Sequence record: PP681140.1
Reading direction: 5' to 3' (one strand)
Source of the DNA: Enterobacter phage EC152
Length of the DNA stretch: 64,000 nucleotides
Made by a program: the position numbers and the translations under genes. The notes under the pieces were generated by a model that was not told the origin of the DNA, searched no databases, and saw only the letters and a list, made by a program, of their open reading frames with translations. Shown one piece after another: positions 15,095-34,436 of the stretch; position 1 is the stretch's first letter; every line of letters starts with the position of its first letter.

Positions 15095-15558
15095 TCGTTA
15101 CTCAAATACTCGTCCAAATACCGGACATCCAGTTCCCATTTCTCTCGCTTACTCCGTTCATGATACAAGGCAAACGCCTCGCTCACGTACTTCTCTGCAA
15201 CCTGTCTGGAGACACCGTTCACCTTCATGAAGTGACGAAGGGCGATTTCTCCTCTTCCACGAATACCAGCAAGGCCGATATGTTTTACTTCATGACATGA
15301 CGGGCAGAGCGCGATAAGACCTTTCAGCGTGATCTTACCATTACCAAAGTCCCAGATTTCGTGACACTCAACAGGGTGTTTGTTCCCTTTACCACCACAA
15401 ATCTCACATCTATAATTGGCTTTGGCATAGCATTTCTTTCTTACGACATCCCATTGGGATTTAGTGAGGTGAGAGCGTAAGTTAGTAAACCAAGCTGTTT
15501 TCGGAACCAGTTCAATCTCTAATTTCAATTCACCTCCACGAAGCTGCGATAACGACAT
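15091..15558 (-). CDS. HNH endonuclease (free-standing, homing-endonuclease-like)
   Basis: CEICGGKG...ECHEIWDF...LCPSCHEVKH. The ORF overlaps both neighbours, and an ATG at 15558 or the GTG at 15582 are both possible starts. Confidence 0.6.
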   Translation of the reverse strand: MSLSQLRGGELKLEIELVPKTAWFTNLRSHLTKSQWDVVRKKCYAKANYRCEICGGKGNKHPVECHEIWDFGNGKITLKGLIALCPSCHEVKHIGLAGIRGRGEIALRHFMKVNGVSRQVAEKYVSEAFALYHERSKREKWELDVRYLDEYLSND

Positions 15559-16036
15559 CAATTGCTCTTTCCCAGCATTCACCGAGAAGGTTTAATCCTT
15601 GCCAGTTGGCAGGATCATCAATGCGTGTATCATATTCATTCATTTTAACTCCCCAGATTGCGTCATATGGGGATGCCTCTACAAAGCGACGACCAGCATC
15701 TCTGTGGGTCAGTGCTGCCTCAAGGATGGATCGATTCGCCTTCATTTTCAGAACAAGACCGTTTGTTACAATGTCCATCCGGTTTTCTTCCCAGACACTA
15801 TTGTCAAAGTCCCTGACTTTACGGCCCAGCGCTTTTGCCTCGTTTGGATTGTTAACCGTGGCAATACGTGCAGCAATCTCTTTATCATCAAAGAGCATTG
15901 CTTTCTGGAACATCATAAAGTGCTCAACCGTGAAGAATTCATAGCCACCACAACGGATAGGAATTACCTGACGGAAGTGGTTGCTGAACATATCACGGTA
16001 AGTGAAGAAGAAAACATGCTGATCAGTTATTCTCAT
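15530..16036 (-). CDS. NADAR (YbiA-like) domain protein
   Basis: YRDMFSNHFRQVIPIRCGGYEFFTVEHFMMFQKAMLFDD matches the DUF1768/NADAR core. The start at 16036 follows AGAGGA. Confidence 0.7.
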   Translation of the reverse strand: MRITDQHVFFFTYRDMFSNHFRQVIPIRCGGYEFFTVEHFMMFQKAMLFDDKEIAARIATVNNPNEAKALGRKVRDFDNSVWEENRMDIVTNGLVLKMKANRSILEAALTHRDAGRRFVEASPYDAIWGVKMNEYDTRIDDPANWQGLNLLGECWERAIDVVIAASWR

Positions 16037-16305: not shown

Positions 16306-17196
16306 TTATTTACCTGCTGGCAGGGTAACGAATGGGGTCTGAGAACCGCTGGTCATGTAGACTGGGGTCACACCGTTCCACTTGTTAATCGCTTCCAGTT
16401 GCATAATCTCTGGGTTTTTGCGGAGAGAATCACCACGAAGTTGGATGGATTCTGCTTCACCTTTTGCCAGTGCTACTTTAGCATCGGCTTCACCCTGAGC
16501 TTGCAGTCGCTTAGATTCTGCTTCACCGCGCGCGGCCTCGATTGCCTTCTGAGCTTCAGCTTTTGTTTGCTGGATTTCGTTCTCACGCAGCAGAGCTTTC
16601 TGAGTAGCCTCGATCTTCGCATTGATGGACGCTGTTACCTGTGGTGGGTAGCCGAGGTCATCAGTGTAAGACAGTTTCACGATCACGATACCGATTGGAT
16701 CAAGTTTCGCTTTCAGGGTTTTCGTCACACGGTCCAGAAGCTGAGATTTACCATCACCAGCCAGCGTACCGATATCCATCGTACCCGCTTCCTTGATCAG
16801 TGCATCAGAGATGTTCTGACGAATGTTGACATCGGTGATTTCCTGAACACCTTTACGGTAAGTCTGGAAGATCTTGGTGACCTTAGAACGATCAACGTAG
16901 TATTCAACACCAATCTTCGCAGTAACCGTCATAGAATCTTTGGTCTGGAAGTTGAAAGGTTGTTCGTAGTTGTTCAACTGGTTGAATGTTGGGAACTGAT
17001 AAATCTCTTCGTTCCACGTCAGCCAGTATTTACCAACACCGACTTCCTGTTGCTGGACTCCCTTCTCATCGCCGTACAGGTCAACCTTGACACCAACATA
17101 ACCTGCCGGGACGGTTGCACGTTCACAACCTGTCAGGCCAATTGCACCCAAAGCGATCAGGCCAGCGAAAACTACACGTTTGATATTCTTAAGCAT
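16306..17196 (-). CDS. SPFH/band-7 (prohibitin/HflK-like) lipoprotein
   Basis: LTGC lipobox after a signal peptide, an SPFH-like core and a coiled-coil tail. RBS AAAGAGGAGAACCAATG. Confidence 0.75.
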   Translation of the reverse strand: MLKNIKRVVFAGLIALGAIGLTGCERATVPAGYVGVKVDLYGDEKGVQQQEVGVGKYWLTWNEEIYQFPTFNQLNNYEQPFNFQTKDSMTVTAKIGVEYYVDRSKVTKIFQTYRKGVQEITDVNIRQNISDALIKEAGTMDIGTLAGDGKSQLLDRVTKTLKAKLDPIGIVIVKLSYTDDLGYPPQVTASINAKIEATQKALLRENEIQQTKAEAQKAIEAARGEAESKRLQAQGEADAKVALAKGEAESIQLRGDSLRKNPEIMQLEAINKWNGVTPVYMTSGSQTPFVTLPAGK

Positions 17197-18218: not shown

Positions 18219-18246
18219 ATTATACAGACCCCTTATTCATTGTCAA
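18219..18246 (-). promoter_or_regulatory. consensus sigma70 promoter TTGACA-N16-TATAAT (leftward); the -10 is embedded in a GGGGTC...GACCCC inverted repeat
   Basis: Reverse complement reads TTGACAatgaataaggggtctgTATAATgacccc. Confidence 0.5.
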
Positions 18247-18932
18247 GCGATAATTTTCGGACTTTCGAAAGTGCTTGGTTTCATGATCTTGCCATTTCTA
18301 TCGAAGAAGACAAGGCGTGAACCTTTGACGTCTGGGTTTCGGATATCAATTACCTCACGGAAACCAACACCTTCATAACGACCATTAGAACGGTCTTCGA
18401 TTGCTTTACATTCTTGACGTAAAGCTTCGGCTTTCTCCTTACCGGGCCACAAGGCAAGAATATCCTGCACATATGGGTATTTGGTATCGTTTGAATGTAA
18501 CACCTGACGCATGTTGTAGTCAAGATTAATATCAAGACGATAGCACAGCGCAGTCACCAGCTTCAGCACATAAACAGGATCTTGCATGTTACCATAGAGG
18601 TTGTGCTCCAGATCACCAATCGTAAACGTCAATGTTGGAGAAGGGGTACAGGCCTCACGTAAATACTCAGGGCTTTTCAACTGGCAAGCATATGAGGCCA
18701 CAACAAAGAGATCGCAGGCAGCGTCAACAGTTTCAATGCGGTCTCCAACACGGAGTGCATCAACGAGTTCGTTGAATTCTTCACGAATAAAACCCCATTG
18801 CAGACTGAAAGGTGTTGCCACATTATTGCGAGCACGATATGCAACATGGTTCCATTCAATCACATGCTCCGCGTATGCGTACAGATCTGATGGTTTTGTC
18901 ATCGCTAAAAGTGTTTCGTAAACCTTACTCAT
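18243..18932 (-). CDS. MazG-like nucleotide pyrophosphohydrolase domain protein
   Basis: EW...FIREEFNELVDALRVGDRIETVDAACDLF fits the MazG/HisE pattern (E..EE..E....D..E..DAL.DL). Confidence 0.5.
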   Translation of the reverse strand: MSKVYETLLAMTKPSDLYAYAEHVIEWNHVAYRARNNVATPFSLQWGFIREEFNELVDALRVGDRIETVDAACDLFVVASYACQLKSPEYLREACTPSPTLTFTIGDLEHNLYGNMQDPVYVLKLVTALCYRLDINLDYNMRQVLHSNDTKYPYVQDILALWPGKEKAEALRQECKAIEDRSNGRYEGVGFREVIDIRNPDVKGSRLVFFDRNGKIMKPSTFESPKIIA

Positions 18933-19313: not shown

Positions 19314-19759
19314 TATGCACGTACCTCTGTTACCTTCACGGTTGCTTCACCGCGAAGTTGGATGTTGGAACCATCGTCGAGAGTGAGAATGATATCATCA
19401 CCACTGATTTTGTGGCCTTTAACAATATAATCTTTTCCCCACATCTCTACCTTATCACCCATCACGACATTTTTGGCCTTGTAATCACCCGGCAGGCGAT
19501 CTTCATCGCTAACCGCTTCATAAAGGTCGCTAAACGCTTGTGGGGACATTGCTGTGAACTGGTCACCCACTTTCACAATGTAATCACCGGGAAACGCCTG
19601 AACACCGTTAACATCCATATTCCGGATATCCCGTGTATGGATCTCAGAATCTTTCCATACCCCGGTCTCGACCCACTTGGTAACTTGACCAACCCCGGTG
19701 CTAGACCCGTTGAATACGTGTGCTTCAACCTCTTGAGGTTTGCGACTATAGAATCCCAT
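19313..19759 (-). CDS. hypothetical protein
   Basis: TAATG overlap with the DNA ligase stop. Start at M7 of the track ORF. Confidence 0.5.
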   Translation of the reverse strand: MGFYSRKPQEVEAHVFNGSSTGVGQVTKWVETGVWKDSEIHTRDIRNMDVNGVQAFPGDYIVKVGDQFTAMSPQAFSDLYEAVSDEDRLPGDYKAKNVVMGDKVEMWGKDYIVKGHKISGDDIILTLDDGSNIQLRGEATVKVTEVRA

Positions 19760-21057
19760 TAGTATACTGGCTCCCATGTTAATGTGTTAAGTTCACGTAC
19801 ACTCTGTCCCACTGGGAACTGAGGTACACCATCATCAGTGCGAGACTGGAATGTAAAGTTGATGAAACCACCAACCAACAGCAACATCTTCGCCTGAGAA
19901 CGTTCTGCATGTGTGCCTTTCATTTTACAGTTGAATCGTGTTCCGTCCTGTTCTTCACAAAGCAGAACACCCTCGCCATTTTTGTCCTCTATAGAATCAA
20001 GGACCTTGGCCTCACCATCCTGGAACAGCTTCCATTTCTGGAGATCAGAGGATCGTTGACCGAACTCGTAGACACCTTTGAAGTTACGGATGATCGACCC
20101 TTCAAATCCTTGCTCCATGTATTTACCGATGGACCACTTAACTTCTCTCTCAGAAGTGACAACAATACCAGCGATAACTTTTACCAATGGAACGTTGAGT
20201 TCGCACTCGACAGCATCAGTAACAGCCAGAAGGTCTTGGTGTCTGGTCTTATCGTGTTCATAAGAATACCAAGGACTCTGTGCATTCACCGGAATGTCAA
20301 AGATATGATACTCAAGGTCAAGACTCGAATAACCACTGTAGCGATCAACGTCCTTCACAGGTTTATACGTTGAAACAGCCCACACGTTGCCGTCAAAGTC
20401 TTTCCAGAGATGTTCACCTGCTTCAACAGCCTTGTTGTAACGCTTGATATCAGCTTGATAATCCTTTTCGATCTCGGATTCAATCTGTTCAGGTGTACGC
20501 CACTTCTTAGCAAGAGCAACAATCTTCTGTAGACTCAGGCCATGAATATACAGTTCACCATCGAACTTGTCAAACCCTGAATGCTCTGCAAGTTCCTTAA
20601 CTTGCTGTAGCAGAGCGCCCTGCACAGGGTATGTCTTGTTTCCACGACTATTAAACACCGGGATGCCATTCTTGTCAAGAGTTACAAGAGCACGAACACC
20701 GTCAAGCTTTGGCTGCACATAGGCAGGATAGACGATAGCTGAAGATCGCTTGATCGCATCGTGTGCCAACATAGGAGAAAAGTTTTCTTCCTCTACGAGC
20801 TTGCTTGTATCGTCACGATATCCAAGACGAACCTGTTTCTCCCACTTAGAAACAGCCTCAACCCATGCCTGCTGTTCTGCGGTGGTTTCATTAGATCGCC
20901 CAACATTCTTAGGTTCACAGGTTGTAACCTTCTGTTGCTTCTTACCACCGACCTTACCAAACTCCACTACGACCTGATCACCTACAATAAACACCTTCCA
21001 ACACTGGAAAGAACCGTCTTTGTTCAGTGCGAAAAGTGTTGAGTTAACTTGCTGCAT
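19759..21057 (-). CDS. ATP-dependent DNA ligase
   Basis: KLDGVRAL (KxDG) adenylation motif. 432 aa. Confidence 0.85.
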   Translation of the reverse strand: MQQVNSTLFALNKDGSFQCWKVFIVGDQVVVEFGKVGGKKQQKVTTCEPKNVGRSNETTAEQQAWVEAVSKWEKQVRLGYRDDTSKLVEEENFSPMLAHDAIKRSSAIVYPAYVQPKLDGVRALVTLDKNGIPVFNSRGNKTYPVQGALLQQVKELAEHSGFDKFDGELYIHGLSLQKIVALAKKWRTPEQIESEIEKDYQADIKRYNKAVEAGEHLWKDFDGNVWAVSTYKPVKDVDRYSGYSSLDLEYHIFDIPVNAQSPWYSYEHDKTRHQDLLAVTDAVECELNVPLVKVIAGIVVTSEREVKWSIGKYMEQGFEGSIIRNFKGVYEFGQRSSDLQKWKLFQDGEAKVLDSIEDKNGEGVLLCEEQDGTRFNCKMKGTHAERSQAKMLLLVGGFINFTFQSRTDDGVPQFPVGQSVRELNTLTWEPVY

Positions 21058-21833
21058 TATTTCTCCTTTTTCTGTAAAGGCGTTTTTCCTTCAAGGTGGT
21101 CTTCAACCATATTGATTAAACCGGGGTTGCTGAAAGCATCAACAGCGCCTGCCCGATAAACGATAACACCCGCATCTTCATACATCAACTGCTCATCATA
21201 GCGAACACCTGGGTTAACAACCACCACCTTTGTTCCTCGCATGACAGCAGGGAAAAGTTCCCAGTTGAAGTTGATCACTGTGTTTGAACAACCAACCACA
21301 ATAACCATGTCTTCAGATGTCAAGCTATCTAAGGTCGAATATAGCTGCCCGTATGCAGGCGCAGTTTCACCAAAAAAGATAACGTTAGGCTTGCACCATC
21401 CATAATCATCTGGGTCAATCTGCTCATAGCCAACATCAATGATCTTTTTAGGTGATCCAGCCTCAGTCTCAATCACCAACTCTTTCAGATAACCATGAAT
21501 ATAAAGCGTATCTTCTTTAGGAACGCCTGCACGTTCCAACAGGTCATCAACGTTAGTTGTCAAGTTAATAACCTGGTTAGGATAGTTTTTATACCACTCT
21601 GCCACACGCATATGTGCAGCGTTAGGATGCACAGTTTGCAGTTCTGCACGACGCTTGTTATAAAAAGTATGCGTCTTGTGGTAAAAATTACCACGGAAGG
21701 CATGGATGTTGCATACCTCTTCAAGGTCATACTCATCCCACAAGGCCTTCCCGGAGTTCGTATCGGTACGGAATGTACGGATTCCGCTTTCAGCAGAAAA
21801 TCCAGCACCGCTAATGACATATAAGCGCCTCAA
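21057..21833 (-). CDS. Sir2-family protein (sirtuin-like, no zinc-ribbon cysteines)
   Basis: GAGFSAESGIRTFR, TTNVDDLLERAG, IHGYL and VIFFGE Sir2 motifs. No CxxC pairs are present. Confidence 0.75.
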   Translation of the reverse strand: MRRLYVISGAGFSAESGIRTFRTDTNSGKALWDEYDLEEVCNIHAFRGNFYHKTHTFYNKRRAELQTVHPNAAHMRVAEWYKNYPNQVINLTTNVDDLLERAGVPKEDTLYIHGYLKELVIETEAGSPKKIIDVGYEQIDPDDYGWCKPNVIFFGETAPAYGQLYSTLDSLTSEDMVIVVGCSNTVINFNWELFPAVMRGTKVVVVNPGVRYDEQLMYEDAGVIVYRAGAVDAFSNPGLINMVEDHLEGKTPLQKKEK

Positions 21834-21843
21834 ATATTTCTCC

Positions 21844-22269
21844 TTATTGCAATTTCAATGAGTTACGCAGACGACGCTCTTGAGCATCACGAGTTTCCTG
21901 CGGAACGCTGTGAATAGAATCATTGCCATGACGGTTCTCGACAACCAGGCTAATGACGCGATACCCATACTCCTCAGCCAACTTAAGGTATGGTTTCAGT
22001 TCTTTTTCACTGGTTGATGTGTTGGACACAATGATCTTACTGGAATTGCCAAAACCATTGAAGTCATTCTCCATCCACTCGCGAACCTGTTCTTGACACC
22101 ATGCATGTGCCGCCTGAATATTCTCAGGTTTCCAGTCATAAACACCATCTTCCGTATAGTGGAATTTATCTGCTTCACATACAGGCCACAAACCCTCTGC
22201 GAGCATGTCTGCAACCGTAGACTTACCAGCACCAGACACACCACGCAGGATAATAAGAGTCTTTTCCAT
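21844..22269 (-). CDS. P-loop polynucleotide kinase-like (Pnk/AAA_33) protein
   Basis: LRGVSGAGKST Walker A. The VSNTS...ENRHGN arrangement resembles the T4 Pnk kinase domain. Confidence 0.6.
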   Translation of the reverse strand: MEKTLIILRGVSGAGKSTVADMLAEGLWPVCEADKFHYTEDGVYDWKPENIQAAHAWCQEQVREWMENDFNGFGNSSKIIVSNTSTSEKELKPYLKLAEEYGYRVISLVVENRHGNDSIHSVPQETRDAQERRLRNSLKLQ

Positions 22270-22278
22270 CTCTTCTCC

Positions 22279-22623
22279 TCAGTAATTGTTTCTCAGAATG
22301 CTCACACCATACCGAGCCATGCTCTCTTTTGCAAGCATAAATTTGTGTCCTGCCGATGGATTAGATGTATGCACGAACAGTTTAATCGGACCAAACAACA
22401 TCTTACCAAAGACAATCTTTTCCTCAAGATTAAGGAAGCACCAATACCCGTCATGGTCTGATTCCTCACCAAGGTCGTTATCGAAGTGCCACTCGGTGAC
22501 ACGACGATATGGTTTACTACGATCTTCGAGGAACTCCATAAACTCTTCAGAGTTCTTTAACCACAAGGCATCCGGATAACCATAATCTTTTGGGTCGCGA
22601 AGGTCATCCAACCAGATTATCAT
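22279..22623 (-). CDS. hypothetical protein with IWLDDLRDP / HFDNDLG acidic motifs
   Basis: 114 aa. Encoded between the kinase and ligase genes. Confidence 0.45.
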   Translation of the reverse strand: MIIWLDDLRDPKDYGYPDALWLKNSEEFMEFLEDRSKPYRRVTEWHFDNDLGEESDHDGYWCFLNLEEKIVFGKMLFGPIKLFVHTSNPSAGHKFMLAKESMARYGVSILRNNY

Positions 22624-22856
22624 TTCTCACCCCTTTCCTTGTGAGGGTAGATTGAACACCCAACACCGTAGCAGCAGATCATGGCAATGATGAATAGAAT
22701 ACCGCCAAAAATTACTTGACCACCAAGCGTTTCGATAACCCAATTCACAAAAATTATCAGTGCAGACAACAATACAAACACAGATAACCCAATGATAAAT
22801 CTAGTAATTACCGAAACAGCACGGTCGCATTTGTCCTTAATACTCATAAGTTTCAT
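22620..22856 (-). CDS. small membrane protein (2 TM)
   Basis: 78 aa, hydrophobic. Confidence 0.45.
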   Translation of the reverse strand: MKLMSIKDKCDRAVSVITRFIIGLSVFVLLSALIIFVNWVIETLGGQVIFGGILFIIAMICCYGVGCSIYPHKERGEK

Positions 22857-23773
22857 TTGCGGTCCTCGAAATATTTTTCAATGATCATACGCCGATACTG
22901 AGAGTCCTTAGCGGCCCACTCTTCTTTTTCGTAAGCCCAGCGAAGCCAGTCAAGGAGTTCGTAGAACTCTTCGTCAATACGCTGTTTGGCATTCTGAGGA
23001 TTATCCCAGATCATGTCCCACTTGTTCTGGCTACCCCGCATCAAGAACTTCTTCGCCAGGTAGTGTGGTGACTTGATTTTCAGGAGTAATTCTCCGGTAT
23101 CAACATCACGTACAACAAAACCTTCATGGTGTACTTCCTTGGATGCTTTCACAACATCACTGAAGATCATGTTATCCCATCCAGCACGTTTCCATCCATA
23201 ACGGTTTGCAACCTTATCAAGGTCCCATTCAGGAAGCATACCACCACTAAGGTGGACACGGCAACCGATCAGGTATGCACCAGCCTCTTCTGCGACGATA
23301 TGTGGATCACTTTCATCACAGATTTCGAAAATCAGTGTACATGGTCCAGCACCCTTGACAAAATAATCCAGAAGATCAGGCGACATTGCACCAACGATCT
23401 TTTCTTTTGCCATATGAGCGAATTCAGAATCGAGTGTCCCCGTTGTTGAGACAATGACCTCACCATTGTAAACACTCATAGCAGCCATAAAGCCATTAAC
23501 TTTACGAGGTACACACACCAACTGGTCCCGTGGAACATCGGTGTTATTCTCGAAGCGGTTGAAAATCTTCGTGAAAGGCCAGATAACAACGTTGTCCTCT
23601 GCATCAACAACCATGCCACGGCACTCAAGAAGACGTGCGTCTGTGTGCCATAAGTTATCCCAGAACACATTGTTCTTATATTTCAGAACAGACAGACCCG
23701 CGAACGGGCCTTCGGTGTAAGTCTTTTTGGTTACCAGCTTTTTAGCTACCAGATCGTCTACGTTAAATTTCAT
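22853..23773 (-). CDS. RNA ligase-like nucleotidyltransferase (Rnl family)
   Basis: Motif I PRKVNGF (KxNG), EGFVVRD and LLKIKSPHY (KxK). It is distinct from the DNA ligase at 19759. Confidence 0.65.
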   Translation of the reverse strand: MKFNVDDLVAKKLVTKKTYTEGPFAGLSVLKYKNNVFWDNLWHTDARLLECRGMVVDAEDNVVIWPFTKIFNRFENNTDVPRDQLVCVPRKVNGFMAAMSVYNGEVIVSTTGTLDSEFAHMAKEKIVGAMSPDLLDYFVKGAGPCTLIFEICDESDPHIVAEEAGAYLIGCRVHLSGGMLPEWDLDKVANRYGWKRAGWDNMIFSDVVKASKEVHHEGFVVRDVDTGELLLKIKSPHYLAKKFLMRGSQNKWDMIWDNPQNAKQRIDEEFYELLDWLRWAYEKEEWAAKDSQYRRMIIEKYFEDRK

Positions 23774-23782
23774 TTTTGTCCC

Positions 23783-23959
23783 CTACTTTTTCTTGAAGAA
23801 TGTCTGGATTATACATGCCTCACGGCGGCTGTCAATACTTTGTTCTGGCATTGATGCCGCTGTTACAAGTTTAGCAACATCGCGCTTGTCGATGGAGCCA
23901 TACGCACCAGAATCCATCATGAAGAAAATCTTGTCTTGGGTAATTTTATGAACTTTCAT
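23783..23959 (-). CDS. small ORF (58 aa) not in the track
   Basis: GAGAGGA RBS plus ATG. The translation begins MKVHKITQDKIFFMMDSGAYG. It fills the gap in the leftward operon. Confidence 0.4.
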   Translation of the reverse strand: MKVHKITQDKIFFMMDSGAYGSIDKRDVAKLVTAASMPEQSIDSRREACIIQTFFKKK

Positions 23960-23977
23960 AAGTCCTCTCTTAGGTAA

Positions 23978-24334
23978 TTAACTACGCTTTTCGTAACCTT
24001 CTGCCTGATAGTAGGTAGTATTGTGCGGTGTTTCAATGCTAAAACTGATCTGGCAGAGTTCTTGGGCTAAGAATGTACCAAGTTCAACAGCCATGTCAAG
24101 TATTTCGTGCTCAGGACGCTCAAAGCGCGGGTACTGCATGATCCGGGCAGTCATACCATCCTCAACACCACCTGTGTACACGTAGGTACACGGGGAGATC
24201 TGCACACAAGCGCCTTTCATCACCCACTGGCGACACAGGTTTTCAGCCTGATTGTAGTTGCCAGCGATGTGAATTGTTGCATAGAAAGACTTAGAAGTCT
24301 TCTTTGGTAAAAAATTACGAGGCTTGTTGTGCAT
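23978..24334 (-). CDS. hypothetical protein
   Basis: The start at 24334 lies just after the upstream stop and has a GGAG RBS. Confidence 0.45.
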   Translation of the reverse strand: MHNKPRNFLPKKTSKSFYATIHIAGNYNQAENLCRQWVMKGACVQISPCTYVYTGGVEDGMTARIMQYPRFERPEHEILDMAVELGTFLAQELCQISFSIETPHNTTYYQAEGYEKRS

Positions 24335-24335
24335 A

Positions 24336-24935
24336 TTATTCTCCATGATCAACAGTGTAAATTGGTTTAGCAAGGCACATCATAACAGCTTCACGCATCG
24401 TTAAAGGACGACCATGCACATCCCAACCCACATCCAAAATACGCCCACCAGGGGCCGTATAGGAGCCGTGGCTGTGACCGTGCAGCATTACCGACCCGTG
24501 GTGAGCTTTATTCCACGAGGCAAAAGGATAGTGGGACATACATACCTTCACCTTTTCTTTTCCGGTGCTGAACTCAATTTCCTTATAGTCCACAACTTCA
24601 TGACCAAACTCACGGAAGATACGCTTGGTCTGATGGTTGTCATGATTACCACCAACCAGAATGATCTTCCCATTGATACGACTCAGGATATCACGAACTT
24701 TTGGCTCAACATGCTTACCATAGGCAATAACGAAATCCCCCAGGTGTGCCACCACATCGTCAGGCTTGACGTGTTTGTTCCACGTCTTAACCATGTCGTC
24801 ATTCATTTTTACAACTGAGGCTGAGTCTTCTTTCGGGCCGTACAGGTTCTTACGGAACTTATCACACGATGGGAAACCAAGAATGTTGGTGTGCCACCAG
24901 TGGGTGTCTGATGTAACGTGATCAATTTGAATCAT
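24336..24935 (-). CDS. calcineurin-like metallophosphoesterase
   Basis: The DxH, GDFV, GNHD and GHSHG motifs are all present. Confidence 0.8.
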   Translation of the reverse strand: MIQIDHVTSDTHWWHTNILGFPSCDKFRKNLYGPKEDSASVVKMNDDMVKTWNKHVKPDDVVAHLGDFVIAYGKHVEPKVRDILSRINGKIILVGGNHDNHQTKRIFREFGHEVVDYKEIEFSTGKEKVKVCMSHYPFASWNKAHHGSVMLHGHSHGSYTAPGGRILDVGWDVHGRPLTMREAVMMCLAKPIYTVDHGE

Positions 24936-26520: not shown

Positions 26521-27333
26521 ATGAGTATTGAATTACGTTTGAACAAACTGGTTGTTCCTGTAGACCACTTCACCTTTAAGGGTGGTGAGGAACAGGTCAA
26601 AATTGACCTAAAACACGCACCAAAAGGCGGTATTGGTTTCGTAGATATCACTGCCAAAATCAAAAATTCAACTGATGTCATGGCACTGGCTATGTTGGTG
26701 GATGCGTGTTCCCGTTTGGAAGGATTGCATAACCACGCAGAGTTCACCCTGCACCTTCCATACATCCCGTATGCACGTCAAGACCGTGTAATGAACCCAG
26801 GTGAAGCGTTATCTATTAAGGTTTTCGCAAACATTGTCAACTCGCTTGGTTTCGACACGGTTATCGTTGATGACCCGCACAGCGATGTCTCTGCTGCACT
26901 GCTCAATAACGTCCGTATCCGTGGTCAGGATGTTCTTATTTCCGAGATGAAAGATCTTGGCAACTCCACATTGCATAGCAACTCTTTGGTTGTGGTAGCA
27001 CCTGATGCGGGTGCTCGCAAGAAAGCCCATAAGGTTGCTGACCGATTCAGTCTTCCTCTTGTTGAGGCTGGTAAAGTACGTGATTTGCAGACCAACGAAA
27101 TCACTGGTACTGCGGTGTTCGGAGATGTTGAAGGTAAAGTGTGTATGATTGTTGATGATATCTGCGACGGTGGTCGTACATTCATCGCCCTTGCACAGGC
27201 CCTGAAAGAAAACGGTGCGAAACGTGTTATCCTGTACGTTACTCACGGTATCTTTTCTTTCGGTAAACAGGTCATCCTCGATGGTGGGGTTGATGAAATC
27301 TATGCGTATCATGACTGGACGGAGAATTTTTAA
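26521..27333 (+). CDS. prs: ribose-phosphate pyrophosphokinase (PRPP synthetase)
   Basis: VVAPDAGARKKAHKVA and the PRPP-binding loop VCMIVDDICDGGRTF. Confidence 0.75.
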   Translation: MSIELRLNKLVVPVDHFTFKGGEEQVKIDLKHAPKGGIGFVDITAKIKNSTDVMALAMLVDACSRLEGLHNHAEFTLHLPYIPYARQDRVMNPGEALSIKVFANIVNSLGFDTVIVDDPHSDVSAALLNNVRIRGQDVLISEMKDLGNSTLHSNSLVVVAPDAGARKKAHKVADRFSLPLVEAGKVRDLQTNEITGTAVFGDVEGKVCMIVDDICDGGRTFIALAQALKENGAKRVILYVTHGIFSFGKQVILDGGVDEIYAYHDWTENF

Positions 27334-27866
27334 TGACTGAATCAACAAGTTTTATTTTTGTTGTCGATACAGATTCCTATGCTGGTAATTTTGAGCGTGA
27401 CATGTGCGCTCATATCACCGGGCAGATTGGTGAATGCGGTGTTGGTGCAGAGTACCGCACCGATATTGAAGACCTAAAAGAAGACCATTACGATTTTGAT
27501 CTCGAAAAAATCTGTGAGTGGTTAGAAAATAATGTTCTCCAGGTTCCAGATGAACACGCCTGCTATCGCCCATGTGCGATTTACCCAACACCGGGGCGTA
27601 CAAACAACGGCGGTGGTGTGCATTCTGATGTGACCGCAAATAATCCATTCAAGTGGCCTGCATACGAAAGTGTAGCTATCTACATCCGTGAAGAACCACC
27701 TGAAGATGTGGTACGTTTCATGGTCATCCGTGCTAACACTTTCTATATTCGTGCGACCAAGTGGTCACCAGCCAAAGAAATCAAGGTAAAAGGTTGCAGA
27801 TTGGTTAAAGAAACGACAACTGTGAAAACAGAATCGAAATCTTTAGACTTTTCACTTGACATCTAA
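27333..27866 (+). CDS. hypothetical protein encoded between prs and nadV
   Basis: TAATG coupling to prs. 177 aa, Cys/His-containing, with no recognisable motif. Confidence 0.55.
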   Translation: MTESTSFIFVVDTDSYAGNFERDMCAHITGQIGECGVGAEYRTDIEDLKEDHYDFDLEKICEWLENNVLQVPDEHACYRPCAIYPTPGRTNNGGGVHSDVTANNPFKWPAYESVAIYIREEPPEDVVRFMVIRANTFYIRATKWSPAKEIKVKGCRLVKETTTVKTESKSLDFSLDI

Positions 27867-27919
27867 ACCGAACGGGGTGTAGAATCACCCCATCAAAACA
27901 CACAAAGGAGAAACAAAAC

Positions 27920-29611
27920 ATGCTGCATAAAGAAAGTCCACTTTGCCACGCTGACTTTTATAAACCTTCACACATCTCCATGTACGATCAACGTTCTGAG
28001 ATTGTTCAGGACAACATGACACCACGTAATGCAAAGCACTTCATTCATTTCGCTGATAATGACCAGCGTGTGATGATGGCTGGCCTGCAAGGTTTCATTA
28101 AGTGGTTCCTGATCGATATGTTTAACGAAAACTTTTTCAAAATGAAAAAGGAAGACGCTCTGGCCCAGTACAAAGAAATTTGTGATCTGAGCATCGGTCC
28201 GAACATGGTTGAAACATGGGGCTTTGAAAAACTTCACGACCTCGGTTATCTGCCACTGGAAATCCGCTCAATTCCTGAAGGTACACTGTCTCCAGTACAG
28301 GTTCCGCTGTTCACCATCCAGAACACGCACCCTGATTTCTACTGGTTGCCGAACTTCCTGGAAAGTGTGATCTCAGCAGAAACCTGGAAAACTATCACAA
28401 CTGCAACTACATTCTGGCAGTATCGTAAGCTGTCTGAAGCGTGGGCCGCTGAAACCTGTGACAACAATCTGCACGTTCCGTTCCAGAACCACTGCTTCGC
28501 GTATCGCGGTGAATCAGGTACTCACGATGCAGCACAGAGCGAGTTTGGTCAACTGATCAACTCAATGGGTACAGATACCATTCCTGCGATTCTGTATGCA
28601 ATGCGTTATTACAACATGAAAGGTAAGTTCGTTGCTGGTTCTATCCCCGCATCAGAACACAGTGTTGCAACAACTAACATTGGCTTTATCGTCGGTCGCC
28701 TGAAAACTGAAAATCCTGATCTGTCTCTGGATGAACTGCGTTTCCTGGCTGAAGTTGAATTCCTGAAACGCTACATCACGGAAATTTTCCCGAAAGGTTT
28801 TGTTTCCTACGTAGCAGACAGCTATGACTTCTGGGCGATTATCACCCGCGCAGCGCTGATTCTAAAAGAAGATATCATGGCTCGTGACGGTCGTGTTGTG
28901 TTCCGTCCTGACTCAGGTATTCCAGAGCACATCATCGCTGGGTATTATATCCTGCCTGGTGAATATAAAACCTGCTCAGACGCATTTGATGAGCTTGAGC
29001 GATTTGAAGGTCCATATACTCCTGAAGTTGTGAATGTGCAGGGGACTTGGTTCACCATTGAATATAACGAGTTCTCAGATACAACGATTACTCGTTCAGA
29101 ACTTACAGACCATGAAGTCAAAGGTGCAATCCAGTGCCTGTGGGAAATCTTTGGTGGTGAAATTAACTCCAAAGGCTACAAAGTTCTGGACAGTCATGTT
29201 GGCCTGATCTACGGTGACTCTATCACTGTCGCTCGTGCAAAAGACATCTTTGAACGTCTGAAAGACCATGGTTTTGCATCCAGCAACATTGTGTTCGGGG
29301 TTGGTTCTTATACCACACAGTACACAACCCGTGATTCACTGGGTATGGCTGTGAAGGCAACTGGTGCGGTTATTGATGGTCAGCAGATCATGGTTGTCAA
29401 AGAACCGAAGACTGATCTCGGTAAGAAATCTGCAAAAGGTTTCCTGAAGGTTGTTCGTGATGAGAATGGTGAACTGAAACTGGTTGACAATTGTCAGCTT
29501 GAAGATGTACAGTCTGACGATAACGAACTGCGTCGTGTGTTCTACAATGGCAAACTGATTGTCGATGAAGACCTGACAACGATTCGTGAACGAGCAGCCG
29601 CTCAACTGTAA
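27920..29611 (+). CDS. nadV: nicotinamide phosphoribosyltransferase
   Basis: 563-aa product starting MLHKESPLCHADFYKPSHISMYD, NAMPT-like throughout. Confidence 0.88.
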   Translation: MLHKESPLCHADFYKPSHISMYDQRSEIVQDNMTPRNAKHFIHFADNDQRVMMAGLQGFIKWFLIDMFNENFFKMKKEDALAQYKEICDLSIGPNMVETWGFEKLHDLGYLPLEIRSIPEGTLSPVQVPLFTIQNTHPDFYWLPNFLESVISAETWKTITTATTFWQYRKLSEAWAAETCDNNLHVPFQNHCFAYRGESGTHDAAQSEFGQLINSMGTDTIPAILYAMRYYNMKGKFVAGSIPASEHSVATTNIGFIVGRLKTENPDLSLDELRFLAEVEFLKRYITEIFPKGFVSYVADSYDFWAIITRAALILKEDIMARDGRVVFRPDSGIPEHIIAGYYILPGEYKTCSDAFDELERFEGPYTPEVVNVQGTWFTIEYNEFSDTTITRSELTDHEVKGAIQCLWEIFGGEINSKGYKVLDSHVGLIYGDSITVARAKDIFERLKDHGFASSNIVFGVGSYTTQYTTRDSLGMAVKATGAVIDGQQIMVVKEPKTDLGKKSAKGFLKVVRDENGELKLVDNCQLEDVQSDDNELRRVFYNGKLIVDEDLTTIRERAAAQL

Positions 29612-30877: not shown

Positions 30878-30954
30878 GGTTCTGTAGCTTAGTTGGTTAG
30901 AGCGCTTCCCTCATAAGGAAGAGGTCGCAGGTTCAATCCCTGCCAGAACTACCA
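30878..30954 (+). tRNA. tRNA-Met(CAT)
   Basis: Cloverleaf with anticodon loop CTCATAA, T-loop TTCAATC and an encoded CCA. Confidence 0.8.
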
Positions 30955-30968
30955 AACGAGGAGAGACC

Positions 30969-31136
30969 ATGAATAAGATTTATGATTTTTTCGGAATTGG
31001 TAAACCCAAGAGTATGTCTTCAAACTGGGATTCCAGAATGGACTCATCTGTAGGGAATAGTAATTCTGTGTACGACCGTTACAATGTTTCACTCGGTCTT
31101 CATAAAGAAACGAAAAAAGATTCAAAAAACGATTGA
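30969..31136 (+). CDS. micro-ORF (55 aa)
   Basis: GAGGAGAGACCATG RBS. Its stop overlaps the -35 of the next promoter. Confidence 0.4.
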   Translation: MNKIYDFFGIGKPKSMSSNWDSRMDSSVGNSNSVYDRYNVSLGLHKETKKDSKND

Positions 31137-31161
31137 CAAAGGAAGTACGAAAGATTAGTAT
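31133..31161 (+). promoter_or_regulatory. sigma70 promoter TTGACA-N17-TAGTAT
   Basis: TTGACAaaggaagtacgaaagatTAGTAT. Confidence 0.6.
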
Positions 31162-31205
31162 TACCAACGTCAACAAGACATTAGCAAATAGAGGAGAAAT
31201 ACAAC

Positions 31206-31535
31206 ATGGCTAAGAAAAACGCAACTAAGAAAGTTTCTGCAATCGACGCAATCAAACAGCCTTTCCAGTTTGAGTCGAAGTCAACGCAGACTCACTCTGC
31301 ACCACACGATGTTCGTCTGGGCGGTGTAACCAAGACCGTTTCCATTCGTAAAAAGCGTCGTGATGAAGACGGCAACGTTGTATTCATCTGGGAATCCGTT
31401 TCCCGCGTTGAAGGCGGTCAGGTTATTTCTGCCTCACATCGTGTTCGCACTGGCAAGACCAAGCGTGAACGCGCTGGTAAAGCTAAAGACGCTAAGGTTG
31501 TTGAAGCCGTAGCGCCGAAAGGTAAGAAGAAGTAA
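31206..31535 (+). CDS. small lysine-rich basic protein (possible DNA-binding)
   Basis: GAGGAGAAATACAACATG RBS. 109 aa with K/R-rich termini. Confidence 0.6.
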   Translation: MAKKNATKKVSAIDAIKQPFQFESKSTQTHSAPHDVRLGGVTKTVSIRKKRRDEDGNVVFIWESVSRVEGGQVISASHRVRTGKTKRERAGKAKDAKVVEAVAPKGKKK

Positions 31536-31559
31536 TAAAGCTTTACTGAACTGATGGTT

Positions 31560-31743
31560 TGTGTTGAAATGGCGCTGTCGAAAATTGTCGGCAGGGTCAT
31601 AGTAAACAGTCGCCCCAGTTCGGTAATTAATTCCTCCGGCATGGGGATAGACGAAGCTGGCTGCGGCGATGCGTCTTAAAATAAAGGGCTGCGGCAACCG
31701 TGACGACCCCGTGCAACGTCTTGAAAAACACGGGACTGATTTT
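31560..31743 (+). ncRNA. structured non-coding region
   Basis: Hairpin CCCGTG...CACGGG plus T-tract near 31705-31743, and a GGCTGCGGC direct repeat. No tRNA fold was found. Confidence 0.3.
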
Positions 31744-31819
31744 GGGGTATTAACTCAGCGGTTAGAGTAGCGGCCTCTTAAGCCGAAGGTCGAAGGTTCG
31801 AATCCTTCATGCCCTACCA
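31744..31819 (+). tRNA. tRNA-Lys(CTT)
   Basis: Anticodon stem GCGGC/GCCGA with loop CTCTTAA. T-arm GAAGGTTCGAATCCTTC. CCA encoded. Confidence 0.75.
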
Positions 31820-31827
31820 AACAACGG

Positions 31828-32033
31828 GCTTTGGAAGTAATGCTTAATTACGGGTGAGGAATCCCCGGACCCCCAGCTTAGGGGTGCATCACGTAAGGTT
31901 CGAATCCTTACCTTCGCCCACCATTTTGAGAGAAAAGAGAACTGGGGTTCAACTCCCTTGTCTCGGAAGGCCCGCCTTCTAACAGGGCCGATAGCTTACG
32001 CAATGGTTAAAGCGCTTTTCTTTCAAAAACTGC
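31828..32033 (+). ncRNA. tRNA-like remnants
   Basis: A perfect T-arm TAAGGTTCGAATCCTTA followed by ...CGCCCACCA has no matching 5' acceptor strand. GCCGATAGCTTACGCAATGGTTAAAGCGC resembles a tRNA 5' half. Confidence 0.35.
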
Positions 32034-32062
32034 TTGACAATGAAATTTTTAAAGTGTAGTAT
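32034..32062 (+). promoter_or_regulatory. sigma70 promoter TTGACA-N17-TAGTAT
   Basis: TTGACAatgaaatttttaaagtgTAGTAT. Confidence 0.6.
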
Positions 32063-32093
32063 CACAACTCAATTTTACGCAAAGGAGAACTTA

Positions 32094-32705
32094 ATGTCTG
32101 ATTCTAAAACTGTAATTTCTGTAACTGAACGCGCTACCAAAGCTGTTGCAACTGCTGCCACTGGCCTGAGTAAGGTTGTTTCTGAACTGCAATCTCTGGC
32201 TGAAGGTTCTGAGCGTATCAGTCAAGAAATTCAGTTTAAACAGCAAGAGCTTGGCAATATCGAAGTGCAGTTCAACGAAAAGCTGGCTGAAGAAAAATCT
32301 AAGCTGAAGATCAAGGTTCTGGAAAATGAAGACGGTGTTCTGAACACTCTTCTGAAGGCTCGTGGCCTTGTAGCAATCGAGCCGGGTGTTGTTGATGGTC
32401 TGCGTTACGAACTGTCGGCTGCTCAGAACAATAACGAAGATGCGATCACCGCCGCAGTAGATGCTGCAAAACGTTCTGCCGCTATCGAACTGAACGCTGT
32501 TAAGTCCAATCTGGAATCAGCACACAAAGTTGCAATTGCCGAACTGAACGCCAATACTAAGGCAGACAAAGATCGTATTGCAATGCTGACCGAACAGCTT
32601 GAAGCAGCCCGTGCAGACCTGAAGGCAGAACGCGAAACCCGTCTGGAAATCGCTAAAGCTGATGCGAATCGTCAAGGTGTTGTAGTCAACACTGGTAAAA
32701 ACTAA
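32094..32705 (+). CDS. coiled-coil protein (203 aa)
   Basis: The ATG at 32094 follows AAGGAGAA. The longer track ORF from 32034 would include the promoter. Confidence 0.65.
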   Translation: MSDSKTVISVTERATKAVATAATGLSKVVSELQSLAEGSERISQEIQFKQQELGNIEVQFNEKLAEEKSKLKIKVLENEDGVLNTLLKARGLVAIEPGVVDGLRYELSAAQNNNEDAITAAVDAAKRSAAIELNAVKSNLESAHKVAIAELNANTKADKDRIAMLTEQLEAARADLKAERETRLEIAKADANRQGVVVNTGKN

Positions 32706-32714
32706 TACCGCTGT

Positions 32715-32732
32715 GCCGACACGGATGTCGGC
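32715..32732 (+). terminator. stem-loop GCCGACAcggaTGTCGGC (no U-tract)
   Basis: Perfect 7-bp stem after the stop at 32705. Confidence 0.35.
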
Positions 32733-32782
32733 AAACATTTGAAGTAAATTTAAAATTTAAAGTTCATTGAGAGGAGAATTAT

Positions 32783-33430
32783 ATGTCTACTAAGATTTCT
32801 GTAACCCGCGCTCTGGCAACTCTGACCAAGGTTGAGGGTAAGATCGAAAAGCGTATCGACCAGTTGAACACTGTTCAGATCGCAAAAGGGACCGAAGACC
32901 ACCGTTCGATCCCAGGTTCTCTGGTTAGCATTGCTGACTTCGAGACTTCTGCTAAGGCAGACTTCCAAGGCCTGCAAGACCTGCTGGCAGTACGTGATGA
33001 ACTGAAGGCGAAAGTTGTTCAGTCCAACGCAGTAACTCTTGTCACCGTTGGTGGTAAAGAGATGACGGTTGCTCAGGCAATTGAAGGCAAGCGCACAGTT
33101 GCTTACAAAGAACTGCTCCTGTCCAAACTGAAAGCGCAGTACAACTTCGCTCAGAAGCGCCTGGATAAAGAAGTCGCTGACTTCGAAACCAAGCTGGAAC
33201 AAGCCCGTGCTCCGTACATCAGTCGTGACAAAGCGCCTGATCCAGAGCAGATTAAGACGGTAGAAGGTCCGACCCGTCTGATGAGCACACCGTCTATCGT
33301 TGACCCACTGGGTCTGGCAGACGTAATCCGAAATCTGGAAACAGAGATCGAAGACTTCAAATCCAACGTTGACTTTGTGTTGTCCGAGTCCAACGCACGG
33401 ACTGAAGTAGAGATTGAGGGATCAATCTAA
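32783..33430 (+). CDS. coiled-coil/alpha-helical protein (215 aa)
   Basis: GAGAGGAGAATTATATG RBS. Confidence 0.65.
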   Translation: MSTKISVTRALATLTKVEGKIEKRIDQLNTVQIAKGTEDHRSIPGSLVSIADFETSAKADFQGLQDLLAVRDELKAKVVQSNAVTLVTVGGKEMTVAQAIEGKRTVAYKELLLSKLKAQYNFAQKRLDKEVADFETKLEQARAPYISRDKAPDPEQIKTVEGPTRLMSTPSIVDPLGLADVIRNLETEIEDFKSNVDFVLSESNARTEVEIEGSI

Positions 33431-33640
33431 AATAACTTGAGGAATTATGAAAAACATCTTGTAATTCCTCTCGTTAACTGATAAAGTTTCAAAATGCTGT
33501 TTTTGGTTAGCGAAGTTGGAAACATCTTGCCTCTACCGAGGCCGGAGGTTAAACTGCCTCGAACTTAATCATATAGGATGATACTTAACGTATGTTTCCG
33601 CAGACCACAACTCTGCCGAAATTATCGAATCGCGAATTCG

Positions 33641-33700
33641 AAAGACTTCAAAGTTCAACATTCAAAGATTAAAGTTCAAAGCTTAATGTTTAAACTTGAA
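33641..33700 (+). repeat. AT-rich iteron-like repeats (TTCAAAG x3 and related)
   Basis: cttcaaagttcaacattcaaagattaaagttcaaagcttaatg. Confidence 0.4.
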
Positions 33701-33817
33701 ACTTCTAAACCACAAAGCTAAAATTTCGTTGATTATTAAAATCCTGGGTCAAAGGTCCTTAGCTCACAAGATATGGCTAACCACACCTCCGGGCAGTTAA
33801 TCGGAAACAGCATTCTT

Positions 33818-33892
33818 GCTCCTAAAGCATAAGTGGCGATGCAGCGGCCTTGTAAGCCGAGGAAGTGGGTTCGATTCCTACTGGGAGCACCA
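33818..33892 (+). tRNA. tRNA-Thr(TGT)
   Basis: Acceptor GCTCCTA/TGGGAGC. Anticodon loop CTTGTAA. CCA encoded. Confidence 0.75.
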
Positions 33893-33898
33893 AACAAT

Positions 33899-33972
33899 TC
33901 GTTGATAGCCTTAGCGGTAAAGGCCCCCTCTGCGCAAGGGGTTCAGTGGTTCGAATCCACTTCAGCGAGCCA
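33899..33972 (+). tRNA. tRNA, anticodon ambiguous (GCG or TGC)
   Basis: T-arm AGTGGTTCGAATCCACT and 3' CCA. The acceptor starts with T. The anticodon loop CTGCGCA is non-canonical. Confidence 0.45.
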
Positions 33973-33974
33973 AT

Positions 33975-34083
33975 GCAGGGTAGGCGGTTTGTCAACCGCG
34001 AGGTCCATCCAGACCTGAAAATAGCTCTCGGCTTGGAGTGGAGAGTGAATACATAGGTGGTTAGATTCCACCACCCTGCTCCA
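33975..34083 (+). ncRNA. tRNA-like RNA with a ~35-nt insertion
   Basis: Perfect acceptor GCAGGGT/ACCCTGC, T-arm GGTGGTTAGATTCCACC and a CCA end. The internal arms do not form a canonical anticodon stem-loop. Confidence 0.4.
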
Positions 34084-34274
34084 AAACATATTTTAAAGTG
34101 CATTAGCTCAGATTATTTGATTCACGGACTGATCATCTGTGAGGAGAATGAGCCTAACTGAATGGAGTTTCAACGACAAAGGCCACGTTGTTGTAACAGA
34201 AGTTCTAAGGTCGTAGAGCGCTGTTCGCGGAGAACAGAGGTCGGTGGAGTCACCATGCAGCTTAAAATATGTTT

Positions 34275-34352
34275 GCGCTCTTGGTCCAATCTGGTAGAGG
34301 CATGGGTGTTAAGCTCCCAGGGTTCCCGGTTCGAGTCCGGGAGGGCGCACCA
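34275..34352 (+). tRNA. tRNA-like, anticodon undetermined
   Basis: Acceptor GCGCTCT/AGGGCGC, T-arm CCCGGTTCGAGTCCGGG and CCA. The D and anticodon arms pair poorly (region TGTTAAG). Confidence 0.4.
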
Positions 34353-34356
34353 GATA

Positions 34357-34431: not shown

Positions 34432-34436
34432 CTTAT

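Follow-up and report, generated by a model that had tools for sequence, protein, structure and literature searches.

A likely RNA heal-and-seal module of three separately encoded enzymes in Enterobacter phage EC152

Bacterial defences that cleave tRNAs keep emerging (PrrC, RloC, PARIS, retrons, OLD and Cas13) and, to our knowledge, the only well-studied phage answer by repair is the T4 Pnkp/Rnl1 pair, which counters PrrC. In T4, the 3'-phosphatase is a haloacid dehalogenase (HAD, DxDxT) domain fused to the 5'-kinase. Clostridium thermocellum Pnkp (CthPnkp) is one polypeptide whose phosphatase is the one metallophosphoesterase (MPE) known to heal RNA ends; its ligase domain belongs to another clade, which needs Hen1, and its repair adds a 2'-O-methyl mark. 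Fungal and plant Trl1 joins a ligase, a kinase and a cyclic phosphodiesterase; it leaves a 2'-phosphate and relies on the NAD+-dependent Tpt1. Modular RNA repair with interchangeable phosphatases is an established principle, and calcineurin-like phosphatases replace the HAD type in a few jumbo phages (Iyer, Anantharaman, Krishnan, Burroughs, Aravind, 2021; PMC7824862). Here we analyse a stretch of 64,000 nucleotides from Enterobacter phage EC152 (PP681140.1; the window), which carries a co-oriented, tightly packed run of minus-strand genes at 19.7-25.0 kb. We consider it likely that the core of this run is a three-enzyme RNA heal-and-seal module, made of separate polypeptides that would form an RNA-end repair pathway:

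24336-24935, minus strand: metallophosphoesterase (MPE), 199 amino acids (aa), stand-alone and binuclear (Pfam Metallophos, phrog_547)
22853-23773, minus strand: short Rnl1-family ATP-dependent RNA ligase, 306 aa, the predicted sealing enzyme (phrog_562)
21844-22269, minus strand: Pnk-clade minimal P-loop kinase, 141 aa, the proposed 5'-OH polynucleotide kinase (AAA_33, phrog_2071)

In its predicted logic the module resembles both T4 Pnkp/Rnl1 and CthPnkp while being a member of neither architecture, and it looks like a second, widespread phage solution, assembled on the evidence of its families from different parts. As in T4, it is phage-encoded, its Rnl1-clade ligase is a polypeptide of its own with the same essential residues, its Pnk-clade 5'-kinase has the same P-loop Lys and catalytic Asp, and both ends would be healed before they are sealed. 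Unlike T4, its candidate 3'-phosphatase is a separate binuclear MPE, its 141-aa kinase stands alone and has no recognisable R38 equivalent, and its ligase is shorter (306 aa against 374 aa in T4 Rnl1), with a much reduced C-terminal helical domain. CthPnkp has the three chemistries predicted for EC152, an MPE as the 3'-healer and a kindred kinase (4gp7, 2e-6), yet it is one polypeptide whereas EC152 has three genes with open reading frames (ORFs) between them. No Hen1 is annotated within 20 kb on either side in the relative 4MG, a statement that extends to the window only in part, as its ORFs were not all searched directly. Trl1 is alike in its ligase fold and in pairing a ligase with a polynucleotide kinase of the P-loop type; it differs in its 2H cyclic phosphodiesterase, its 2'-phosphate and its reliance on Tpt1, none of which was found in the EC152 module.

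The region shares 93.6% identity with Escherichia phage vB_EcoM_LNA4, 93.1% with Cronobacter phage GAP31 and 82% with Escherichia phage 4MG, the last two being classified as Seunavirus (Vequintavirinae); by sequence, EC152 is a Seunavirus-type phage of the Vequintavirinae and kin to GAP31, 4MG and LNA4. The records of these relatives name the genes separately ('RNA ligase 1 and tail attachment protein', 'phosphoesterase', 'ATPase', 'Sir2', 'hypothetical'), and neither their annotations nor the searchable papers treat them as one system. Likewise, the searchable literature, which did not cover the survey of Burroughs and Aravind (2016), contains no description of the trio of such a kinase, an MPE related to Aquifex aq_1665 and a short Rnl1, or of its fusions. 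A sequence-only reading had proposed a split Pnkp-like operon here; the genes that it quoted all lie where it placed them, and the quoted motifs of every named protein are present in the expected places. Profile scores put the family matches of the MPE, the ligase and the kinase, and of the Sir2 and DNA ligase proteins treated below, far beyond chance.

The ligase carries the motifs KVNGF (at residue 91), EGFVVRD (217) and KIK (232) and matches phrog_562, the T4 RnlA group of PHROGs (6e-65). A PDB search with its single sequence gave noise only, and for the kinase such a search yielded no more than weak hits, one to a designed protein and two to gluconokinases; family profiles were needed for both. 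A profile built from 27 ligase homologues matches T4 Rnl1 (2c5u, 2e-11). Across these homologues, K91-V-N-G94 (motif I), E150 (III), E217-G218 (IV) and K232/K234 (V) are invariant, and K91, E150, E217-G218 and K232/K234 align with K99, E159, E227-G228 and K240/K242 of T4. The Rnl1-specific invariant residues R52, K69, F71 and Y238 align with T4 R54, K75, F77 and Y246, and T4 K119 is not kept, a conserved Thr (T111) standing at the aligned position; all five of these T4 residues count as essential in the T4 mutational literature. The AlphaFold model of the ligase is confident (predicted local distance difference test, 91.7), and a Foldseek search of the PDB with it returned T4 Rnl1 first (2c5u, 9.3e-13), then fungal Trl1 ligase domains (about 4e-12; 6n0t, 3.6e-12) and archaeal Rnl3 (about 1e-10), the first DNA ligase, that of African swine fever virus, coming far lower (4.6e-6). 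Because profile, aligned residues and fold matches agree, we assign the protein, from sequence and model, to the RNA ligases of the T4 Rnl1/fungal Trl1 clade and not to the DNA ligases. This bears out the earlier view of an Rnl-family ligase; an assignment to DNA ligases or capping enzymes was not obtained. A search with the ligase turned up 2603 related proteins at E ≤ 0.001.

The kinase has its P-loop motif, GVSGAGKST, at residue 10, and scores 8.9e-9 with Pfam AAA_33, 5.6e-55 with phrog_2071 and, more weakly, 3e-7 with phrog_505 ('polynucleotide kinase'). The best matches of a profile of 19 diverged homologues are Capnocytophaga Pnkp1 (4xrp, 1e-8) and T4 Pnk (1ly1, 5e-8), followed by L-seryl-tRNA(Sec) kinase (5e-7) and the CthPnkp kinase named above; the alignments to all four cover most or all of the domain. 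Metabolic kinases match much more weakly or over the P-loop only, and no deoxynucleoside monophosphate (dNMP) kinase is among the 60 matches listed for the profile. Invariant in the family are K16 in the P-loop (G10-V-S-G-A-G-K16-S17), D34 and R113, which correspond to K15 (with S16), D35 and R122 of T4; the positions aligned to T4 R38 (H37) and R126 are not Arg, in loops whose alignment is unreliable at such a distance. On these grounds the protein belongs, by sequence, to the polynucleotide-kinase clade of Pnkp1, T4 Pnk and CthPnkp rather than to the dNMP kinases, and the Pnk-like label that it had been given stands. Its family comprises 1281 representative clusters at E ≤ 1e-10, nearly all of them stand-alone proteins of 130-150 aa.

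In the MPE, the motifs SDTH (residue 9), GDFV (66), GNHD (96) and GHSHG (153) are found, with scores of 1.6e-7 for Pfam Metallophos and 1e-49 for phrog_547. The residues of the binuclear metal site (D10, H12, D67, N97, H98, H135, H154 and H156) are invariant in 19 diverged homologues, as are the family-specific H15, R28, W141, D168 and D172. Relatives occur on at least 565 viral contig stretches. The family profile has one strong match among solved structures, Aquifex aq_1665 (1xm7, 4.8e-22). We propose, from its family and metal site, that the MPE is the 3'-end healer, acting as a 2',3'-cyclic phosphodiesterase and/or a 3'-phosphomonoesterase.

The strongest computational evidence available for a common pathway comes from the linkage and fusion of the three genes. 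A scan of IMG/VR with the ligase family gave 80 loci, whose ligases range in identity between 93% and 38%; of these we counted the 58 that have at least 3 kb on both sides of the ligase; genes in the compared loci are stop-to-stop ORFs with hidden Markov model matches, called without a gene finder. Of the 58 loci, 54 have the kinase within 3 kb of the ligase, 49 have the phosphoesterase there and 45 have both. The genes are arranged in at least six ways, chiefly as MPE-ligase-kinase (30 loci) or as kinase-ligase-MPE (13 loci), and in 6 loci kinase and ligase form a single ORF. In the reverse scan, the best 80 loci of the phosphoesterase family have a ligase within 6 kb in 47 cases and a kinase in 46. 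Phylogenetic dependence among these loci makes the counts larger than the number of independent events, an effect that the varied gene orders and the fusions mitigate. Kinase-ligase fusions are present in phage contigs and in Cardiobacteriaceae and Pasteurellaceae genomes, where a phage-type phosphoesterase follows. In Leptolyngbya-type cyanobacteria, a single kinase-MPE-ligase protein of about 710-770 aa carries AAA_33, Metallophos and RNA_lig_T4_1 domains (for example, in Leptolyngbya sp. PCC 7375, locus L107, 6780-8918; about 20 further loci lie in the range L086-L118). Aligned end-to-end, the ligase module of this protein and residues 4-304 of the window ligase are 30% identical (E 1e-38), and the three predicted activities are the same; the protein differs in that all are fused, in that kinase and phosphoesterase are of the CthPnkp type (4gp6, 3.8e-11; 4j6o, 2.8e-24), and in its cellular context, with RtcB directly downstream in 14 loci. 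The phage-type MPE profile fails to detect the cyanobacterial phosphoesterase domain, and the cyanobacterial ligase domain, which matches PF09511, hits no solved CthPnkp ligase chain at E ≤ 0.01. A linkage that survives rearrangement and is repeatedly turned into fusion argues strongly that the three enzymes serve one pathway, and RtcB, together with tRNA and transfer-messenger RNA (tmRNA) neighbours (30 of the 60 related loci scanned have a gene of either kind within about 8 kb of the ligase), is a pointer to RNA as the substrate. Syntenic trios across very diverged phages, with pairwise and triple fusions elsewhere, lend the split Pnkp idea independent support. In a complex of the three proteins, the natural fusions would predict that the C-terminus of the kinase lies next to the N-terminus of the ligase.

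The same data bear on a very different reading, in which these are independent accessory genes kept by inherited order and the ligase has a mainly non-catalytic role, like that reported for T4 gp63 in tail-fibre attachment. Databases indeed name homologues 'RNA ligase and tail fiber protein attachment catalyst', and in HIDEN-SEQ the N-terminal domain of T4 rnlA was intolerant of transposon insertions under laboratory conditions. Yet the linkage outlasts gene-order rearrangement and divergence below 40% identity, the fusions occur in phages and also in bacteria, which have no tail fibres to attach, and the catalytic residues are all invariant across the three families; we regard this reading as very unlikely.

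Alongside the trio's family membership, its intact catalytic residues and its conserved linkage and fusion, all of which are observed, we infer the substrates, the division of labour between the MPE and a cREC domain protein encoded between ligase and kinase, the identity of the host nuclease, and a counter-defence role against anticodon nucleases. The module would most likely reseal tRNAs cut by host defences. A host RNase, for instance an anticodon nuclease or another metal-independent enzyme, would cut tRNA or other RNA to leave a 2',3'-cyclic phosphate or 3'-phosphate and a 5'-OH. The stand-alone binuclear MPE would open the cyclic phosphate and remove the 3'-terminal phosphate to yield a 3'-OH, probably assisted with the cyclic phosphate, in the EC152 lineage, by the cREC protein; the 141-aa kinase would phosphorylate the 5'-OH; and the short Rnl1-family ligase would seal the ends through ligase-AMP (on K91) and RNA-adenylate intermediates.

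Several points weigh against this heal-and-seal reading. The MPE falls, by its sequence, in the aq_1665-like clade and not in that of CthPnkp and lambda phosphatase: the CthPnkp phosphoesterase is lambda-phosphatase-like, whereas the EC152 family profile matches neither it (4j6o) nor lambda phosphatase itself (1g5b) at E ≤ 0.1. The calcineurin-type, non-HAD phosphoesterase described earlier is thus borne out in its motifs and metal site and not in its match to CthPnkp. Its sole solved relative, aq_1665, is uncharacterised in function, a structural-genomics protein that says nothing about the substrate; weak matches lead to YfcE and to the DNA-damage-associated PdeM models (TIGR04123, 0.0015), and a likeness in action to the Pnkp phosphatase would follow from genomic context. 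About one third of the phosphoesterase-family loci have no ligase within 6 kb. In the kinase, the absence of a recognisable R38 counterpart counts on the same side. The window ligase has no Pfam match at E ≤ 0.01, staying below the PF09511 threshold, and is not recognised by NCBIfam, although most of its 120 best homologues carry PF09511 in precomputed annotation and the fused relatives, with 32-45 bits, exceed the cut-off of 28.3. The C-terminal domain of T4 Rnl1 confers tRNA specificity; in the ligase model only about 70 helical residues follow motif V (helices 236-305), compared with about 120 aa in T4 Rnl1, and the TM-score normalised to T4 Rnl1 is about 0.52, so that, as modelled, most of this domain is missing. 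The activities of the kinase, MPE and ligase families are predicted ones, as is the host nuclease that would make the damage. Finally, a DNA ligase is so frequent a neighbour that a DNA substrate is possible. This last point calls for the other genes of the run, which surround and separate the trio:

23978-24334, minus strand: 118-aa protein with a S-adenosylmethionine (SAM)-lyase-like fold (phrog_4848)
23783-23959, minus strand: 58-aa conserved small ORF (phrog_20147, 2e-15)
23808-23835, minus strand: perfect sigma-70-type promoter-like site, TTGACA-16-TATAAT (a 12/12 consensus match only)
22620-22856, minus strand: 78-aa predicted membrane protein (phrog_30308, 1.6e-52)
22279-22623, minus strand: cREC domain protein, 114 aa (Pfam PF20274)
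21057-21833, minus strand: Sir2-family protein, Zn-less, 258 aa (PF02146, phrog_2162)
19759-21057, minus strand: ATP-dependent DNA ligase, 432 aa (PF01068 and PF14743), just outside the range 21057-24935 of the sequence-only reading

In 29 of the 58 loci, the DNA ligase (phrog_114, 1.5e-81, besides the two Pfam domains) is no more than 8 kb away from the RNA ligase, and it adjoins the module in several arrangements. Kinase and MPE might heal DNA 5'-OH and 3'-phosphate ends for this enzyme during replication, recombination or the repair of host-inflicted nicks, with the Rnl1-like protein acting on single-stranded nucleic acid. T4 Pnkp and mammalian PNKP do act on DNA, the PdeM family that the MPE weakly matches is a ligase-associated one of the DNA-damage response, and the leftward block also holds ribonucleotide reductase, ThyX, a DNA polymerase exonuclease subunit and exonucleases. 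Against this, the kinase is fused and most tightly linked to an enzyme of the RNA ligase family and not to the DNA ligase, the cellular fused versions adjoin RtcB, an RNA ligase, the fold of the window ligase is nearest to ligases of tRNA repair and tRNA splicing, and tRNA clusters and tmRNA genes are often nearby. DNA healing therefore seems to us an unlikely account of the module.

The 114-aa protein matches PF20274 (cREC_REC) with 4.7e-14 (53.3 bits against a cut-off of 27). Its acidic and Ser/Thr motifs are kept (WLDD at residue 4, FDNDLGE at 47, HTSNPS at 85), and so are receiver-type residues (D6-D7, D49/D51, T86-S87). The cREC domain was defined by Iyer et al. (2021; PMC7824862), who found it operonically linked with RNA ligases and NAD+-related enzymes and predicted that it processes 2',3'-cyclic phosphates or cyclic ADP-ribose; by sequence, the EC152 protein is a divergent receiver domain for which processing of cyclic phosphates is predicted. 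The EC152 neighbourhood is like theirs in that the cREC gene is operonic with an ATP-dependent RNA ligase and NAD+ enzymes (Sir2, NADAR and a salvage pair), and unlike theirs in that they dealt with jumbo phages whereas EC152 is a Seunavirus-type phage of about 148 kb. The searchable literature contains no functional study that follows up either cREC or the RNA ligase of Vequintavirinae. Only 10 of the 58 loci carry a cREC gene, which is why we class it as an accessory. The Sir2 protein (PF02146, 4.8e-22; phrog_2162, 8.7e-110) has Cys only at residues 41, 147 and 182; with its Cys isolated and no CxxC...CxxC site, it was rightly called Zn-less. It is missing in GAP31 and present in 11 of the 58 loci, an occasional and variable accessory. 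We considered the phage Sir2 as a captured defence NADase and dropped the idea, as PADLOC gave no defence-SIR2 match; in PADLOC, the ligase, the phosphoesterase, the cREC protein and the 118-aa protein likewise had no defence-type match. The grouping with Sir2 and a DNA ligase had been called unusual, which the counts qualify: with 29 of 58 loci showing it, DNA ligase adjacency is common, and it is Sir2 that is occasional.

The leftward block starts at a divergent AT-rich region at about 26.0-26.2 kb, beyond which lie, on the other strand, two further features:

26521-29611, plus strand: NARP1-like NAD+ reconstitution pair, divergent from the block (Prs/Adps-like gene, 26521-27333; Nampt/Namat-like gene, 27920-29611)
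30878-37332, plus strand: cluster of 25 tRNA genes (ARAGORN, Rfam)

GAP31 and 4MG have homologues of the pair under the names ribose-phosphate pyrophosphokinase and nicotinamide phosphoribosyltransferase. Between the two genes lies a 177-aa ORF (27333-27866) that matches nothing in Pfam or PADLOC; according to the GAP31 record it is similar to gp332 of Bacillus phage G. In phage Bas63, NARP1 (Adps and Namat) rebuilds NAD+ and overcomes NAD+-depleting defences (bioRxiv 10.1101/2024.02.11.579819).

These genes raise the alternative of a pathway centred on NAD+ and ADP-ribose, which could take either of two forms. In one, similar to Trl1, the cyclic phosphate would be converted to a 2'-phosphate, a junction bearing the 2'-PO4 would be sealed, and the phosphate would then be removed in a NAD+-dependent manner (Sir2, Macro, cREC); in the other, the MPE and the cREC protein would destroy cyclic-phosphate signals or by-products derived from ADP-ribose and not act on RNA ends. 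Within 8 kb of the ligase, a Nampt-like gene is found in 33 of the 58 loci and a Prs-like gene in 27, in differing orders; Macro-domain genes recur (11 loci); Sir2, cREC and NADAR are all present in the EC152 stretch; Trl1 ligase domains match the ligase fold almost as well as T4 Rnl1 does; and Iyer et al. tie cREC to enzymes of NAD+ and ADP-ribose (PMC7824862). Yet the annotation of the close relative 4MG shows no Tpt1/KptA homologue within 20 kb, and most of the loci that keep the trio have neither Sir2 nor cREC. Moreover, NARP1 has been shown experimentally to be a self-sufficient counter-defence in Bas63, so that co-location of anti-defence genes explains the linkage with no need for mechanistic coupling. 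We judge a NAD+/ADP-ribose-centred pathway improbable, and equally doubt that a widespread phage module couples the repair of RNA mechanistically to the reconstitution of NAD+. Such a coupling, if true, would account for the company that the trio keeps with NARP1-like, Macro, Sir2 and NADAR genes; it would amount either to a new pathway of signal degradation or to an equivalent, in bacterial viruses, of the Trl1/Tpt1 logic of eukaryotes.

Returning to RNA-end repair by the trio, its neighbours Sir2, the DNA ligase, the 78-aa and 58-aa proteins and the SAM-lyase-fold protein belong to an accessory or counter-defence region and are not obligatory parts of the module. The last of these is listed as a 131-aa ORF with a TTG start at 24373 (23978-24373); its conserved part begins at Met14, and the real start is most likely that ATG, at 24334, giving 118 aa. 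Judging from its fold, the 118-aa protein is probably a separate anti-defence gene outside the repair core; a role as repair cofactor was rejected on account of the SAM-lyase fold and the narrow distribution. The 58-aa ORF is restricted to the closest relatives, as is the 78-aa membrane ORF, which is lineage-specific (3 of 81 loci). Where the sequence-only reading had small unknown or membrane proteins, the membrane protein holds, and two of the unknowns can now be given a cREC domain and a SAM-lyase fold.

Spacing between adjacent genes of the block, mostly -4 to +10 nucleotides (nt), fits co-transcription. The promoter-like site listed above (23835-23808 when read along the minus strand) lies at the 3' end of the 58-aa ORF, inside it, about 35 nt upstream of the ATG of the ligase. 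Other strong matches lie upstream of the phosphoesterase block (25668-25639 and near 26151-26122), and a second 12/12 sigma-70-type site stands within the leftward block at the end of a MazG-like gene (18219-18246, minus strand). The scan returned 34 sites against 17.8 expected, so single promoter-like sites are no proof. With a perfect site just 5' of the ligase, more than one transcription unit is suggested: the MPE and the 118-aa gene, on the one hand, and the genes from the RNA ligase through the DNA ligase, on the other, are probably separate or additionally promoted units. Of the one leftward operon first proposed, the common orientation and tight spacing remain, with probably two or more promoters.

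The persistent NARP1-like pair and the tRNA clusters mark the region as an anti-defence island, and the position of the trio among validated or likely counter-defence functions supports, and does not prove, a counter-defence reading. This island around the module is worth mining. If the activities are confirmed, the aq_1665-like family of phosphoesterases would gain a function, as would a polynucleotide kinase of very small size, and a compact enzyme set for the manipulation of RNA ends would be at hand; this would also help to predict which phages, therapeutic Vequintavirinae included, escape tRNA-targeting immunity.

Across the window, Rfam finds tRNAs only, hence nothing to suggest that a known RNA, such as a Y-RNA-like one, serves as a cofactor. 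Two extra tRNA-like sequences that ARAGORN does not call are detected by Rfam (36269-36352, plus strand, 50.5 bits; 37339-37417, plus strand, 45 bits), with which the cluster would reach about 27 genes. In four related contigs, a permuted tmRNA lies within a few kb of the ligase (L060, 16410-16732; L067, 14168-14570; L073, 13238-13640; L077, 8665-9065), and L067, L073 and L077 encode the kinase-ligase fusion. Diverged phage loci also repeatedly show, close to the trio, a protein of 176 aa that has an HD-like motif but matches no Pfam family (15 loci), the Macro-domain protein (11 loci) and a Rv2179c-like 3'-5' exoribonuclease (15 loci); examples lie at L024 6877-7404, L022 8440-8925 and L069 3033-3662.

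Further along the leftward block, a SPFH/Band-7 lipoprotein (16306-17196, minus strand; Pfam 2.1e-21) drew attention, SPFH modules having been proposed as RNA-repair scaffolds; it was left out as a candidate scaffold, being absent among the 25 most recurrent neighbour clusters. A NADAR-family protein (15533-16036, minus strand) is 96% identical to the NADAR protein of 4MG and matches the PADLOC candidate-defence model PDC-M42C (8.7e-28). Downstream of the DNA ligase, after a few genes, comes a MazG/PRA-PH-like nucleotide pyrophosphohydrolase of 229 aa (18243-18932, minus strand; Pfam 1.7e-4), which bears this annotation in GAP31 and 4MG too; in Vequintavirinae-like loci it keeps its synteny with the module.

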